NCBI GenBank assembly: GCA_965113315.1
Contig: OZ220374.1
DNA: 64,000 bases
Source of the DNA: Podarcis vaucheri
Lineage: Eukaryota
Direction: 5' to 3' (one strand)
Under the pieces are notes generated by a model that saw only the letters and a program-made list of their open reading frames with translations, made no database searches and was not told the DNA's origin. This document shows, in pieces, positions 3,946-40,178 of the stretch. Within the stretch, counting starts at the first letter, position 1, and the number at the start of each line of letters is the position of its first letter. Position numbers and translations under genes: made by a program.

Positions 3946-5499
3946 GTGTATGGGGAGGCAACAAAAGATAGTGACCATCCCAAGCACCAGACAGAAGAGA
4001 TGGTCTCGGATGCTCCCAGCATTGCTGAAAACTCTGCCTTCAGCAAAGATTTGCTTTTGGAGAATAAGGAGTATGCACAAACAAATTCTCTTAAGCTGAA
4101 AACAAACTGCTCCATTGTGTTAGACAATGAAAGGAAGACGGGGCCAGAAGAAGCACAATGTCCAACAGTTGAAACTGGAAGACAAAGGTCAGCCAATGCT
4201 GCACTTAGAGAGACTGGTCATGGTTTGCCCCAGAAGGAGCCTCTCAGTGATGCAGGGGCACCTCCTGTCAGTCAAACAGACTCATACACTCAGGAGGCTT
4301 CTCCTAAGTCTCCAGAGGAACAAGAAATGTCTGCTGGGGCCTATAATCAAGTTGTGCTGAGGCATAAAGCACCTAGAAATGTTACCTTAAATAGTATGGA
4401 TGAGGTAGAGTCACCAACTAGCTCTCCAAGTGATGAAAGTCCACCATCAGAGAACATTGCTTTCATGATTACCAAAACAGCAGTCCAGTTTCTGTCCAGT
4501 GGAGAGGTCCACGATATAGTCAACAGGCAGGGAGAGGATGTGCAGACTGTGAACATTGATTCCAGAAGGGAAGCAACATCCCAACAAGGGACGCTAGAGA
4601 ACCGTGAAAGTGAAGATCCCGTGGTCTGCTTGGACAAAAAGCCGGTAATCATTATTTTTGATGAGCCAATGGACATCCGATCAGCTTATAAAAGACTTTC
4701 AACAATATTTGAGGAATGTGATGAAGAGCTGGAAAAAATGATGACAGAAGAGAAGATAGAGGAAGAGGAGGAGGAGGAGGAAGAAGAAGACCAAGAACCT
4801 GAGACACGTGGTGCCCGTAACATAGGAGTTACCAGTGCAGACAGTCCTAGGAGTCATGGGGCTGATGACGCAACAAGCGGCAGATTTGAGCAGGACTTCA
4901 GACAACGCTATCTGTCTAATTCAGCGACTCAAGCCAAACACCTTGAAGGGCAGGAAACAGATGAGATGGATCTCAGGAAATCTCCTTATATTTATGCGCC
5001 ACATCCAGAGTCAAAGCTGGACATTCCTGATACAAAGAAGAAATTCAAGTTTAAATTCCCTAAAAAGCAGCTGGCTGCTCTTACGCAGGCAATCCGCACA
5101 GGGACTAAAACCGGCAAGAAAACTTTGCAAGTGGTTGTGTATGAAGAAGAGGAGGAGGAGGACGGCACTGTGAAACAGCACAAAGAGGCAAAAAGGTTTG
5201 AAATCCCGAGCAGTCGGCCCGATGACGCTTCAGGGAAGGAGGAGCCAAACCTAACTGTACAGACTTCTAGGACTGAAGAAATTAGAAAGAACACATACAG
5301 GACTCTGGACAGCCTGGAGCAGACTATTAAGCAACTGGAGAGCACTATTAGTGAGATGAGCCCCAAATCAGTTTCTGAAGCTCCAGCCCGATCGGAGGGA
5401 ACTTCTGTCCCGGGCTTTTTCTCACCAAAAGAACCCCTAGCGCTGGAAGAGACTATTGCTGATGTTGAACCCCCCTCAATACCGTCAACTTCACGTAAG
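3946..5499 (+). CDS. KIAA1217: KIAA1217/sickle tail homolog, large internal coding exon (518 codons, phase 0/0)
   Basis: Acceptor cttccccctag|GTG at 3945/3946, donor AAG|gtactt at 5499/5500. ORF has recognisable SKT motifs KKPVIIIFDEPMDIRSAYKRLSTIFEECDEELEKM, KKKFKFKFPKKQLAALTQAIRTGTKTGKKTLQVVVYEEEEE and RKNTYRTLDSLEQTIKQLE. Adjacency to ARHGAP21 matches known vertebrate synteny. Confidence 0.95.
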
Positions 5500-6016
5500 G
5501 TACTTTAGTATGAGAAATCACAACTCCAGCTGCTTTCTAAAACAAAATCTGCCGTAATAATCACCATTAAGCAAGAGGTGTCTTCTGATTGGTTTGCTTC
5601 CTTTCGGGTGGCTTGTTTGGTGCATCCATTAGGTGTCTAACAGCTAATAGATTTGTGTGTGGTTTCATTTTTTAAAAATAAAATAAAATCTCTCCTGCTG
5701 ATTGGTGATGGGCAATCAAAGGAAGCTTGGTCAGCTGTGGGCGAATCAAAATACCTGGGACTGCCAGTTAAACGTAGGTTGATCTGTAGTTGAGCCTTTG
5801 ACCTCCATTTTTGATTCCTGTAATTAACACCGGTGGTGTGCCTTGTGGTGTGGATCCTTTTGGTGCTTCCTGTGCATGTCTTGGGGGCTTTGCCTTCTCA
5901 CTCAAAGCAGCTTTGGCCATGGTGCGTGAGCCTCCACCTTGCCCATGCACTGATGCTCACCCCACGTTTCCCTTATCTCTCTCCCCTTCCCCTTGGCACC
6001 CCAACCTTCCTCACAG

Positions 6017-6142
6017 GGTTCAACCAGCACTTCACAGACCAGCAGGATGCCAATCCCTGCAGCCGCAAAAAGTAGACAGCAAAGCAACGCAGACAAAACA
6101 AGCAAACCGCACAAGCTACAGGATCAACGCCAGTACAGACAG
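6017..6142 (+). CDS. KIAA1217: KIAA1217 penultimate coding exon (GSTSTSQTSRMPIPAAAKSRQQSNADKTSKPHKLQDQRQYRQ)
   Basis: ttcctcacag|GGT ... CAG|gtagtt; 126 nt, phase 0/0; resembles recalled mammalian GSSGAPQTSRMP...KLQDPRQYRQ. Confidence 0.9.
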
Positions 6143-6685
6143 GTAGTTTTACCCTAAACCCAAAGCTTGGGTTGGACTTGAAAGCGGATTGTGTGTGTTT
6201 GGTAAATGTGTAAGTCAAGTGACCGACTTGGATGATACCAAATAATGGACTTTTGTCTTCCTGCTGAAATCTGGAATTGGAAATCCAGGGGAATGGGGGT
6301 GGGGCATGAAAATATTTAATGGTAGCATTGTCTCTCCCCCCACCCCATGCTTGCGCATGTCTGCAGTAAACCATCTCCTGCTTTTTTGAGTTTTGTTCCA
6401 GTACTCGGCTGCAGTTTCCTAAATGTCAGCGACAGGAACAGATGCCGTTTGAAGCATTTCAGATGACACTGTCAATACTAACTCCCTGTTTAACAGACCG
6501 CAGTGAGAGCCTATTAACCACCCACCAAAACGTTTCCACCCTCACCTAACAACCCTACAAGCATGGCCAATGTGGTGAACAGCCCAGTTTTTGTGGCGCC
6601 TTCCTTTCCCCACCCTCTTCTCCTGTCAACTTCTCCCACACTCTGTCCATCTTCTGTCCCATAGCTGAGGGAGGGGTGAAGGGGG

Positions 6686-6720
6686 AAGGAAGGAAGGAAG
6701 GAAGGAAGGAGGGAGGGAGG
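6686..6720. repeat. (GGAA)n/(GGGA)n microsatellite
   Basis: Direct inspection. Confidence 0.9.
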
Positions 6721-6884
6721 CCTCCCAGGTCCAGCGCATAGGTGCAAGATTTAGTGCCAGCTTCCGAGAGACTATATCCATTCTTCCTTTCTGCAAGCCT
6801 ATTTTCCCATACAGCTCCTCTTTTTTTAATGTTTATTGTGTATGTTGACTTAAATTGTCTCCCACCATCTTTATTTATTTACAG

Positions 6885-7449
6885 GCTAATGGAAGTGCTA
6901 AAAGAGCTGGTGGGGACAGTAAGGCCACTTCCCTAACCTGTCTGCTTCAAAAATTCCAGCCTTTCCTTCCACCTCTGGGAAAAGTAGCTCTGTTTCTAGT
7001 GGTGATAGCACTAACCTTCTGAGCCCCCCTACTAAAGCCTCTGCCCCTTCTTCTAACCCTCTCAGTCCTCCAACAGGTCGCCCTCCTCATTCCGCTTCCC
7101 TAATCCCCTCTGTCTCGAATGGCTCCTTGAAGTTCCAGAGTCCCGCTCACACAGGTAAAGGTCACCATCCTCTTTCATTCTCAATACAGACTCAAAATGG
7201 CNNNNNNNNNNNNNNNNNNNNNNNNNNNNNNNNNNNNNNNNNNNNNNNNNNNNNNNNNNNNNNNNNNNNNNNNNNNNNNNNNNNNNNNNNNNNNNNNNNN
7301 NNNNNNNNNNNNNNNNNNNNNNNNNNNNNNNNNNNNNNNNNNNNNNNNNNNNNNNNNNNNNNNNNNNNNNNNNNNNNNNNNNNNNNNNNNNNNNNNNNNN
7401 NGTCAGCAAACCCGCCCAATCTTCCTCCGTCACCAAGGAATCAACTTAA
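6885..7449 (+). CDS. KIAA1217: KIAA1217 last coding exon (ANGSAKRAGG...SKIP...NGSLKFQSPAHTGKGHH...gap...VSKPAQSSSVTKEST*), with apparent 1-nt deletion near 6931-6933 and an assembly gap
   Basis: tttatttacag|GCT AAT GGA AGT; homologous frame continues only after a -1 shift at acttCCCtaac; Ns 7202-7401; TAA at 7447-7449 after AAG GAA TCA ACT (recalled mammalian end AKETS*). Confidence 0.85.
7202..7401. other. Assembly gap (200 N)
   Basis: Run of exactly 200 N inside the last KIAA1217 exon. Confidence 1.
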
Positions 7450-23883: not shown

Positions 23884-24017
23884 CTTGTTGCTCTGAGCAG
23901 GGGGGCAGTCATCTAGCCTGACCCCAAAAGTCCCAGCAGCAGATGGCTTCTTCTCAAAGGTTTTTCTCATGATACTGGGAATGTTTCGCCATGTACCTTT
24001 CGGTGGGCTCGTCTCAC
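23884..24017 (-). CDS. ARHGAP21: ARHGAP21 exon ([45 protein letters not shown])
   Basis: ccctttacaaaaaag|GT GAG ... AAG|gtctga; 134 nt, phase 1/0; FGVRL at the RhoGAP start. Confidence 0.88.
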
Positions 24018-25395
24018 CTTTTTTGTAAAGGGACAAAAGCAACACAGAAAACAGATTTTTTAAAAAATAATAATCCATGATCTAATTGAAGGTGACTCCA
24101 AATAAGTTCTTTCTTGGTAGAACTATCAGAATAAGCAGCAAGACCATATACACAGGAAACCTACACAGATCCAGCAACCACCACAAACATTATCGTTATG
24201 TGTTACCTGTATTTTCTTATTGACAACCCACTTCTGGCTTCCAAACCACCTCCCAACACTTCCCAATTAATAACAAGAAGCAAGTTTCCAACACATCAAG
24301 AAATTCATTTGGAAGTAGCCCTCCCTAAAAAATATTCAGAAACAGCTTCCATTACTTCACCAACCAGTTAAATACATTATACCATCAAATACAATTACTT
24401 GAGAAAATCTTTGTGAAAAAGATTAGGGGGAAAATGACCTTGGACTAAAGCAAATGAATACTTCTGACCATCTTCTGTGATGTCATGGTCCTTGTGTAAA
24501 AAGCACACCTACACTTTGGAATGGTCTAGTTTTGTTGAATATATTTCAATGGTAACTATCTAAAGTTGAATGCACATGTAGAAAAACAGCTTTGATCCAT
24601 GCTGGTTACATATGCTCATCAATTTTTAAAACTTTACCTGCTGATTTGAGGGAATGCAGAAAACCTTCAATAGTAATTAAGGGTAATTGATCTTATTATT
24701 GTAAAATTTATTCAATACTTTCACTGCCAGAACTCACATACACACACAGCACTTGAGCACTGACATATTACATTTTATGTAAATGAGGAAAGGGAGCGAT
24801 TAATTTTAAAAATCATAATGGCAGCAAAGTCTTCTATTAACAAGGTCTGCAACAATACTTGACTGCAATGAATAACAAAGCTATTTTTTTTTCAACAACA
24901 AGAGTGCTAAAGCTTCTTCATTATTCTATAGCAAAACCCAAATCCCCCAACAAAGAAAGTGACTGAGAAAAATAAAATATAACAACACTATTGAGGGTGA
25001 AGGGATACACAATAAAGTATATTTTTAAGAAGACTGAAACCAACAATTCTAAACCGTTTGTGAAACTAAAAGATTCCTGAAATTAAACATGCATTTTTTT
25101 TTGTACTGTGCTATCCAGCGCATCAGGCTGTTCACCTAACCAAGATGCAGCACTTCAGGTCTGAAGTTTCCCTATTACTGGTGAGCAAGAAAAGTTTGCA
25201 GCACAGGAGGGGCTTCCTTATTATTGGCTATATGGAAGGAGTGCCTTGGATACTCGTGTCTTAAGAGTCCATGAAACTCCTACAAGCGCCCAATGACTAA
25301 AAGTCATTTCCTATGTGTTACCATCCTCTTTCTTCTGGTGTTAATCTGGAAGAGCTGAAACTAGTAATGATATTGATACACATTAACCTTTAGCA

Positions 25396-25686
25396 CAATT
25401 TCAGAATTGCTGCTCACTGGAAGGACAGATTGTGAAGCTGAGGCTCCAATACTTTGGCCACCTCATGAGAAGAGAAGACTCCCTGGAAAAGACCCTGATG
25501 TTGGGAAAGATGGAGGGCACAAGGAGAAGGGGACGACAGAGGACGAGGTGGTTGGACAGTTTTCTCGAAGCTACCAGCATGAGTTTGACCAAACTGCGGG
25601 AGGCAGTGGAAGACAGGAGTGCCTGGCGTGCTCTGGTCCATGGGGTCACGAAGAGTCAGACACGACTAAACGACTAAACAACAACA
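25396..25686 (+). mobile_element. 5'-truncated RTE-BovB LINE 3' end with 11-bp TSD AACCTTTAGCA
   Basis: Encodes KLRLQYFGHLMRREDSLEKTLMLGKMEGTRRRGRQRTRWLD (BovB ORF C-terminus); tail CGACTAAACGACTAAAC(AAC)n; TSD at 25385-25395 and 25687-25697. Confidence 0.93.
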
Positions 25687-25689
25687 AAC

Positions 25690-25838
25690 CTTTAGCAAGG
25701 CATTTCCTTTCCGATTCTTCCTTGGGAGAATGAGGACTCTGAGTTCTTTGCTCAGTTTTAGAACCAAGAAGTGTCTGCCTTATACTCAGGGTCTGACGAG
25801 GTGTTTTGGGAGATGGCTCAGTTTTGCCGCTCGAAGCA
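25690..25838 (-). CDS. ARHGAP21: ARHGAP21 exon ([26 protein letters not shown]...ERKCLAK)
   Basis: attttttcag|T GCT ... AAA G|gtttgt; 149 nt, phase 2/1; donor abuts a BovB tail. Confidence 0.9.
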
Positions 25839-25924
25839 CTGAAAAAATAAAATTATATTATTCATAAGCAGAGGGCCAATATTTCAGATCAAATGAGCTA
25901 TTAGACTGCAGCATGGCTGCTTAC

Positions 25925-25989
25925 CTCATCATTGTGTTGTATTCTTTAATTCTCCCCCTAATTAGGTCCCTGCTTGTGACCCCTGCATT
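25925..25989 (-). CDS. ARHGAP21: ARHGAP21 exon, helical part of the Arf-binding region (NAGVTSRDLIRGRIKEYNTMM)
   Basis: cattttacag|AAT ... ATG AG|gtaagc; 65 nt, phase 0/2. Confidence 0.92.
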
Positions 25990-28276
25990 CTGTAAAATGA
26001 ATTGAGAAATATTGTTCAGACCATGCTTTAAACAACTGAGATTATCTAGCCACATTCAGGAGACAGTAAACCATAAGAAAGACAAAGTAGTATAACTATA
26101 AGCTCAGATATGTGCAAGCTTCATGTACCCCCCCCCACTTCCTGCAAGCAAGGAAGCACACCAGGAACCTTAGCTGACCATTGCTACATCCAAACCCAGA
26201 AACTACAGTTATTGGCTTCCAAAGAAACTATGATAGATAACCATGGTTTAAACCTGACTTCTGAATTCTGGCTTGTTTCGTTCATTAAGCCAGGATTTGG
26301 TCATGCATATATAGTCGATGTATGTAACACGTTAAAAAAGGAAAAAGAAAAGCGGGCAGGGAAGACACAGGAAGGGCAGAATTCAGTGTATAAGATGCTG
26401 TGCGTCTTAAACCAGGGTGCCGACCAGATGCTGTGAACTGTAACACCTATCACCTCAGCTAGTGTTGCGAATGGGAGTTGCAGTCCACAACACGGAGGGC
26501 ACCGGGTTGGCGACCCCTGCCTTGAGCATGGACTGCTATTACACACTGAATTGCAGACATAGCTGAAAACATCTGAAAGAAAGTAGAAGTAATTTTACAA
26601 GCCAAAGCACTGAGGACAAAAATCTGTAAACAGTATACCCTTACCCTGAATTGCATTTATCTTCAATTAACTTTATGTGACTAATGGTTCTTAAAAATCA
26701 CAACTAACTGCACACTTATCTGCCTACCAATCTACACAGGCATTGCAACAGCAGTGGAAAACAGCAACACCTTCTCATCATGTTCTTATGACAAATCCTC
26801 TCCGGGAACAATCATAGTATTCCAAGAAACAGAGTAGCTCGAAACTATGACTAATACCTGTGTAAAAGATCACCAACTATTCATATTCACATCTGCCTGT
26901 GTCTGTGTGTGTGTGTGTGTATCTTAAGCGCACTATTCTTATAAATCTATTCCACATCAAACACGTTATCTGCAGATTCACATTCAATGCAGTCCACTTT
27001 TACAAGACACTCTTCCTGGCTGCTATTAACAACTGATAGTGTCAGAAGTAGCCTCAATGTCCATGAGTAATGGATGCACAACAGTGTAATCCTATACAAG
27101 TCTACTCAGAAGTAAAGCCTGGTTAAGTTTAATGGGAATTACTTCCAGGTAAATGTACTAAGATTGCTAGTCCGAAAGGAGTTATGTTAGGACTCTGCAC
27201 CCTGATCTCTGCTACAATTTTAAAATATTTAAACCTCAGTATTGGATGGGATTTTCAGATGTGCAGAAGGTGTGGATGATAGCCAATTAAATTTGGGTTT
27301 CATAGCAACAGGGTACTTCATATGGAACATTACATCATTAAATGGAAATTCAGACCATCTATGATTTAATCATTCACCATTAGAAGTTACATACACCAAA
27401 AATGATTAATGAGAACAGGAAGGAAAAGCACTAATTAGCAAAAATTCATAAAAAACTGCAATCTATACATACATATCTTGGAGTAAGTATCACTGAATTC
27501 AGTGGGACTTACTTCTGAGTAGATATTCATAGACTTGCACTGTGAAAGCAGTTTAGGTACAACCGAAAAAGCAGTGTTAATTAAAGTTAGCTAAGCTTCA
27601 GTAAAAGTAACTGAGCCTACTTTTTAACCAGTCTAAAGAAGTTAAATAATTTTAACCACTTCCCTTGGCAAATGATGTTGTTGTTAAAGAGCTCAAACAA
27701 AACAGTTTACTAGAGCTTATTTATTTATATCCCACCTTTCCTCAAAGGATTTCAAGGTGGAGGAATACATCATACACTCGCCATATTATCCTTACAACAA
27801 CTTTGTGAGGCAAGGTAGGCTGAGAGGTGTTTACTGGCCCAAAGTTACCCAGAGCTTCTTGGCCGAGTTAGGAACCACACAGCACAACTCTATGCAATTT
27901 TACTCAAAAGTCAGTCTCATTGTGTTTACTTCCTGGTAAATGTGCACAGAACTTCTCCCTTAAGACAGTTATCTTACTTGAATAACGTGCAAATTTTCAG
28001 TAGTAGTTAAAAAAGAAAGTTCAATAGTTTTCTCTACTTTCTCTTTCAAAATATTCTAATTAAGACTCTGACTCTGGCACTTATCTGTAAGTTAAGGACA
28101 AGGAACATGTGGAGCTCCATATATCAATGGACTCCATCAGCCCCAGACAGCATTGTCAACAGACAGCAATGCCAATGATGTAGCCCAACAAACATCCAAA
28201 TGGACACAGATCTCCATCCCTGTACCCCTATTTCTCTTACTGACTGATTCAATTTTTTCCCCTTGGTATTTTTATA

Positions 28277-39704: not shown

Positions 39705-40178
39705 AAAGGTAAAGGTTTGACCAAACTGCGGGAGGCAGTGGAAGATAGTAGTGTCTGGCATGCTCTGGTCCATGGGGTCACAAAGAGTCAGACACGACTA
39801 AATGACTAAACAACAACAAAGGTAAAGGGACCCCTGACCATTAGGTCCAGTCGTGGCCAACTCTGGGGTTGCGGGACTCATCTCGCTTTATTGGCCGAGG
39901 GAGCCGGTGTTTGTCCGCAGACAGCTTCCGGGTCATGTGGCCAGCATGACTAAGCCGCTTCTGGCGAACCAGAGCAGCACACGGAAACGCCGTTTACCTT
40001 CCCGTCATAGTGGTACCTATTTATCTACTTGCACTTGGACATGCTTTCAAATTGCTAGGTCGGCAGGAGCAGGGACCGAGCAACGGGAGCTCACCCCGTC
40101 GCGGGGATTCGAACCACCGACCTTCTGATTGGCAAGTCCTAGGCTCTGTGGTTTAATCCACAGTGCCACCCACGTCCC
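39705..40178 (-). mobile_element. Full-length Sauria SINE with 15-bp TSD TAATTAGGTGATAGT
   Basis: Minus 5' GGGACGTGGGTGGCACTGTGG..GGTTCGAATCCC tRNA-like head; (ACCTTT)n tail; TSD 39690-39704 and 40179-40193. Confidence 0.92.
39716..39817 (+). mobile_element. Short RTE-BovB 3' fragment nested in the SINE tail
   Basis: Nearly identical to ~25585-25686; flanked by AAAGGTAAAGG at 39705-39715 and 39818-39828. Confidence 0.9.

Follow-up and report, generated by a model that had tools for sequence, protein, structure and literature searches.

Introduction

The closest precedent that we found for the locus described here lies on the acceptor side. The canine merle SINE is inserted antisense at the PMEL intron 10/exon 11 boundary, where the acceptor is duplicated and the reversed tail acts as a polypyrimidine tract (PMC7349775). 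Insertions of Alu, L1 and poly(T), mediated by the L1 endonuclease, are reported at NF1 splice sites, with target-site duplications and some sites hit twice (PMC3219598). The reptilian Bov-B LINE is described with a (CAA)n tail (section 3.3), 5' truncation and a Tn-TA target signature, its duplications starting with A and having T before them (PMC13295347).

In a 64-kb stretch of Podarcis vaucheri DNA (hereafter the window), a Bov-B-type LINE end lies antisense at a donor of the gene ARHGAP21. As in the available account of merle, an antisense retroposon sits at an exon-intron boundary, the duplication takes in the splice site and the reversed tail stands in the place of a splicing signal; the merle account also includes competing sites and exonisation of the element, which are candidate outcomes here. 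Merle concerns an acceptor and a poly(T) tail and has a proven tail-length-dependent splicing effect and a phenotype, whereas the ARHGAP21 insertion concerns a donor, has a (GTT)n tail that gives positions +4 to +6, is apparently fixed in a clade and is known from DNA alone. The NF1 insertions likewise lie at or beside splice sites and have target-site duplications; those covered by the text available to us came from patients and all changed splicing, whereas the ARHGAP21 insertion appears tolerated and is an RTE-clade element. With the reptilian Bov-B the locus shares the (CAA)n tail, the 5' truncation and a duplication running from A after T; it departs in an imperfect upstream T-run (TATT at −14 to −11), and splice sites are not discussed in the accessible part of that paper. 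A literature search, judged by its listings and with most subscription journals outside its scope, turned up no publication on this locus or on a donor completed by an element tail. Tail-derived +4 to +6 letters at a duplicated donor are a small twist on a known kind of event.

Results

An element end and a duplicated donor in ARHGAP21

ARHGAP21 lies on the minus strand of the window, and across its largest exon it shows 99% identity to the Podarcis protein P0001. A spliced alignment to this protein joins 25690 to 24017, with identity at 29 of 29 residues across the junction. Protein comparison indicates that the gene is conserved across vertebrates. The affected exon (Table 1) is preceded by an intron of only 86 nt.

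The insert comprises 302 nt, including 15 extra nt at its 5' junction, and is flanked by an 11-bp target-site duplication, AACCTTTAGCA, beyond which the bases differ on both sides. This sequence occurs only twice within the window, and the probability of such a match by chance is ~3e-4 even with 30 x 30 boundary placements. The duplication spans the exon-intron boundary of ARHGAP21, covering exon positions −8 to −1 and intron positions +1 to +3, and the empty site found in another organism (below) holds a single copy. As a result, two donors are present. The exon-adjacent donor is AAAG/GTTTGTTG (AAG/GTTTGT; the slash marks the exon-intron boundary), in which TGT at +4 to +6 is by position the element tail, which accordingly stands within the splice signal. 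The second copy is AAG/GTTAATGT (AAG/GTTAAT), 302 nt downstream. Both donors have AAAG/GTT in common and are unlike at +4/+5 (UG versus AA); the core AAAG/GTT of the exon-adjacent donor is host sequence, not element. An initial annotation, made from the letters of the window, had described this duplication and claimed the tail origin of +4 to +6; all of its coordinates are correct, and the sequence positions bear out the tail origin.

Table 1. The ARHGAP21 insertion and neighbouring features, in window coordinates
Feature	Position	Strand	Evidence
ARHGAP21 coding exon, 149 nt, ending ...TGCTAAAG	25690..25838	-	Spliced alignment to P0001; tblastn
Target-site duplication, copy at element 3' (tail) end, exon −8..−1 and intron +1..+3	25687..25697	.	
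Exon-adjacent donor AAG/GTTTGT, +4..+6 (25686-25684) tail-derived	25684..25692	-	Identical in run X9
5'-truncated Bov-B-type LINE 3' end, antisense to gene, with open reading-frame end	25411..25686	+	Genomic copies at 96-98%
(AAC)3A tail of element	25677..25686	+	(CAA)n tail described for reptilian Bov-B (PMC13295347)
First in-frame stop (TGA) on exon extension into element	25646..25648	-	Computed from frame
15 extra nt at 5' junction, non-element	25396..25410	.	Without match in 29 other copies
Target-site duplication, copy at element 5' end, T before (T^A nick site)	25385..25395	.	Signature per PMC13295347 (in part) and family survey
Displaced ancestral donor AAG/GTTAAT, 302 nt into intron	25382..25390	-	X12 empty-site contig; intact copy in X3
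Next ARHGAP21 exon, acceptor at 24019-24018	23884..24017	-	Spliced alignment

Identity of the element and its target

The element portion of the insert (25411-25686) is 96-98% identical to other genomic copies (40 scored of 985 candidates), and the 5' ends of these copies vary, as in a high-copy, 5'-truncated family. Against the majority of 22 aligned copies (of 29; the remaining 7 were dropped because the anchor was not placed), it differs in 3 of 253 columns. On this comparison, at about 1% from its family, the insertion would be young. Exact matches to the tail motif number 24,257 across the genome, and the (CAA)n 3' tail is the one described for the reptilian Bov-B, an RTE-clade LINE. The element also contains a reading-frame end, which we take to be Bov-B's. 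We call the element Bov-B-type on the basis of its tail, the published target signature and this presumed reading-frame end.

The target signature was surveyed in 57 family copies chosen regardless of donors. Duplications of at least 9 nt were obtained for 20 of the 57, a few of them probably spurious; A comes first in 19 of these 20 and T precedes in 16 of 20, in agreement with Tn-TA. The ARHGAP21 duplication likewise has A first and T before it. In gene orientation its T^A insertion site reads GTT^A, which fits the published Bov-B signature, and donors with GT^A or GTT^A may therefore be ordinary Bov-B targets. The identification of a Bov-B retrotransposon at the donor, already proposed in the initial annotation, is thus upheld as Bov-B-type by tail, copies and target signature.

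The 15-nt stretch at the insert start had gone unmentioned before; a search for a local template within 24301-26800 gave nothing above 8 nt. The window contains a second Bov-B-type end of 106 nt (39715-39820; 94% identical), likewise antisense to the gene. It has AAAGGT repeats on its flanks and seems to lie within the tail of a Sauria SINE-like element.

Carriers and the empty site

Four DNA runs were compared. Run X3 bears the same organism label as the best-matching genome and comes from a different sample, and X6 and X9 bear two other labels. The insertion is present in these three runs, which represent three organism labels and three studies, and the fourth, X12 (organism E, one individual), has an empty site. 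In X3, X6 and X9, contigs run unbroken from unique flank into both element ends at flank depth, and among the contigs listed the insertion looks homozygous in all three carriers. The X9 contig across 25666-26050 has one difference (at 25911) and no gap, and its upstream donor is identical to that of the window; the displaced donor is intact in X3, and the X6 tail contig has one 8-letter gap.

In X12, a 539-nt contig passes from 25687-26011 directly to 25168-25384 with zero letters between, such that the empty site consists of one duplication copy, AAG/GTT followed by the displaced intron start. From this site AAG/GTTAAT is the ancestral donor, with letters itemised for 3 of the 10 differences of the contig and +5/+6 of the empty donor not among the letters shown. 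With three of four runs carrying the insertion and one having the empty site, the insertion is not a misassembly, and the ancestry of the GTTAAT donor, which had been proposed from the window, is supported.

The flanks of X3, X6, X9 and X12 diverge from those of the window by 0.84, 0.80, 1.11 and 1.60%, respectively. The data fit an insertion that postdates the split from organism E, represented by one individual, and predates the split among the carriers. Given these divergences and the pattern of carrier and empty sites, the insertion is common to a clade and has persisted in a conserved gene. By inference, other lacertids besides organism E are without it.

Consequences of using the displaced donor

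Should splicing use the displaced donor, the exon would extend into the element and reach the TGA 258 nt ahead of that donor. The normal junction is at roughly residue 1143, ahead of the RhoGAP domain (residues 1190-1338), so truncation would precede RhoGAP, as had been claimed. By the textbook distance rule, nonsense-mediated decay (NMD) targets premature stops that lie over 50-55 nt ahead of the next junction, and the computed 258 nt exceeds that distance.

The normal junction is present in each of the 18 lacertid protein models that were inspected, in a comparison not restricted to insertion carriers. The read-through peptide and element-derived C-terminal residues are absent from the 174 proteins searched, which is a weak test: NMD-targeted transcripts seldom appear in gene models.

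Relative strength of the two donors

Donors were scored by consensus match counts and by predicted duplex energies, and the two measures point in opposite directions. The predicted contiguous U1 helix favours the exon-adjacent donor (−6.0 versus −4.1 kcal/mol for the displaced donor), whereas consensus matches favour the displaced one (7 plus 1 wobble versus 6). Other ARHGAP21 donors span a similar range and include AAG/GTACTG, AAG/GTCTGA and AAG/GTAGCT.

These scores bear on the proposal of the initial annotation that the insertion rescued itself by rebuilding the donor. What stands is that the tail lengthens the predicted U1 helix. Against a rescue, the old site has more consensus matches and, in the account of PMC11732430 as far as it is available, AG//GUNNN donors form a class in which −1G permits any +5. 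The tail adds +5G yet did not build the donor, because the AG/GT class allows any +5. Such rescue as there was is partly luck: three-unit tails ending on MAG/GT in the genome (n = 158) read GTTGTT in 100 cases, GTGTTG in 36 and GTTTGT in only 22. The GTTTGT register is therefore not the default, and the commonest register, GTTGTT, lacks +5G.

Published donor behaviour adds two considerations. In the accessible part of PMC11732430, m6A:U pairs with U6 tend toward the unfavourable, which disfavours the new +4U; the same source reports that +4U sites gain on loss of U6 m6A, and that +4U and +4A sites respond oppositely in several species. According to the available text of PMC3413131, splicing normally goes almost exclusively to the downstream of two bound donors when at least 45 nt separate them, with the upstream donor active where the downstream donor is weak. 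This downstream-donor rule argues against easy tolerance of the insertion and lends some weight to the earlier idea of competing 5' sites.

Discussion

A probably tolerated accident

We consider it probable, from the sequence comparisons and predicted helices, that the locus is a tolerated accident, in which a Bov-B-type LINE landed antisense at +3/+4 of an ARHGAP21 donor and splicing is likely to remain almost entirely exon-adjacent. The element endonuclease would have cut at GTT^A, with priming on the (AAC)n tail falling by chance in the register that gives GTTTGT. The upstream copy would have kept the exon entire, with its strong end of the AG/GT class, while gaining +5G. Of the exon, the downstream copy would have been left with just 8 bases, followed by a weak GTTAAT, its U1 binding too poor to win even though it lies nearer the acceptor. 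Any rare extended transcripts would meet a stop 258 nt ahead of the junction and be cleared by NMD, and the allele could have spread without need of function. Its survival probably owes to the weak GTTAAT and the favourable tail register. The homozygous appearance of the carriers, the difference in predicted U1 helices and the normal junction in 18 of 18 models speak for such tolerance; the intactness of the displaced donor in X3, its greater number of consensus matches and its +4A speak against it.

The main rival, which we regard as unlikely, is an unregulated leak. A steady minority of transcripts would use the displaced donor, which is nearer the acceptor, and their destruction by NMD would leave ARHGAP21 output slightly lower in carriers. 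The proximity rule for duplicated donors (PMC3413131, in its available part) would favour such use of a site that is, after all, a former working donor, and the stop lies far enough ahead of the junction for decay. The upstream intron is also short, and its 86 nt may relax the limit on exon size. However, the displaced site has a weak predicted U1 helix and no exon sequence beyond −8, and the allele looks homozygous in three of three carrier runs.

The initial annotation went further and saw in the competing sites a ready-made poison-extension switch. In such a switch U1 loading, SR proteins or U6 m6A might shift splicing to the displaced donor and NMD would then lower the gene. The opposite responses of +4U and +4A sites to U6 m6A loss across several species (PMC11732430, accessible part) would provide a lever, truncation would precede RhoGAP, and both donors are intact where checked (upstream in X9, downstream in X3). 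However, the insertion appears young and lineage-restricted, so intact donors are no sign of selection, and organism E and, by inference, other lacertids manage without it. Judged on the sequence, regulation of this kind is improbable.

An assembly artefact and an insertion private to one individual are both ruled out for practical purposes, as both junctions occur in contigs of X3, X6 and X9, three other runs from three studies.

The locus illustrates how a LINE can land on a splice site of a conserved gene yet persist. So long as splicing at the second donor is no more than a candidate outcome, the locus is best seen as an ordinary, if well-documented, insertion scar. It is also a natural experiment, with two donors that have the same exon end, differ at +4/+5 and lie 302 nt apart, in a group with carrier and non-carrier relatives. 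The contrast between carriers and non-carriers is a potential test, in a living vertebrate, of the proximity rule and of the U5/U6 donor-class model.

A screen for possible tail-completed donors elsewhere in the genome

It had been suggested that antisense (GTT)n tails may complete donors generally. We screened 141 loci at which a tail adjoins AG/GT, namely all 81 with GTTTGT (two of which appear to be a single duplicated region), 30 of 36 with GTGTTG and 30 of 100 with GTTGTT. A GT-spanning duplication of at least 9 nt is found in 64 of the 141, a few of them spurious. No second coding donor was recognised among the 141 loci in this low-power screen, ARHGAP21 being the only one. Pfam searches of upstream open frames gave two weak sub-cut-off matches among 62 frames and none among 50, and missed the true ARHGAP21 case too; nine other 10-kb neighbourhoods gave no Pfam matches. 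With a home-made exon score, the null 95th percentile was exceeded by only 3 of 14 known exons. Together with the predominance of GTTGTT among the tails, the screen speaks weakly against a common class of tail-completed coding donors and is compatible with a handful of cases, and the suggestion of generality is to that degree contradicted.

Two other loci came close to the ARHGAP21 arrangement. The best other candidate (L034/L182, in an SLC4-family gene) lies 224 nt into an intron and hence is not a donor insertion. In L182 (G000:C10, about 4983-5270 in gene orientation) an antisense Bov-B-type copy with an 11-nt duplication yields CAG/GTTTGT and CAG/GTTAGC, two donor-like sites behind a possible acceptor, which make it a candidate cryptic exon. 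At L087 (G000:C29, about 1420-1502) an antisense Bov-B-type tail makes CAG/GTTTGT in an open frame. An apparent coding-exon donor precedes the tail by about 83 nt, so this is not a donor insertion either, and the site is a possible alternative donor. The L087 exon may be that of a JNK-interacting protein.

A broader scenario can be drawn, although we give it little credence. T^A nicking would coincide with the GT^A or GTT^A of donors, and selection would keep those insertions that combine a weak old donor with the GTTTGT register. A few donors completed in this way, forming a small class with displaced +4A twins, would be expected in squamate genomes, tuned by U1 loading or U6 m6A as newborn poison switches, with ARHGAP21 as the first.

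Other observations in the window

The spliced junction of the two ARHGAP21 exons reads AAG/GTGAGA (24012-24030, minus strand) and is donor-like because the next exon opens with GTGAGA. At −9.6 kcal/mol it is more strongly donor-like than either genomic donor, and it is a possible recursive or re-splicing site. The glycine at the 25690 to 24017 junction is common to Rhineura and other lacertids.

At 24018-24025 (minus strand), K-EK-D stands at the junction in most squamate models and bird models have both K-D and K-EK-D, which suggests, from the protein models, that a tandem acceptor lies 6 nt upstream. EK is missing from lacertid models, and the place reads CA in the window and CG in all four runs (24024). 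The remaining acceptor is unusually A-rich (TACAAAAAAG).

A convergent neighbour gene at 3946-7200 (plus strand) has a long coding exon, and a gap of 200 N (7202-7401) falls within one of its reading frames.
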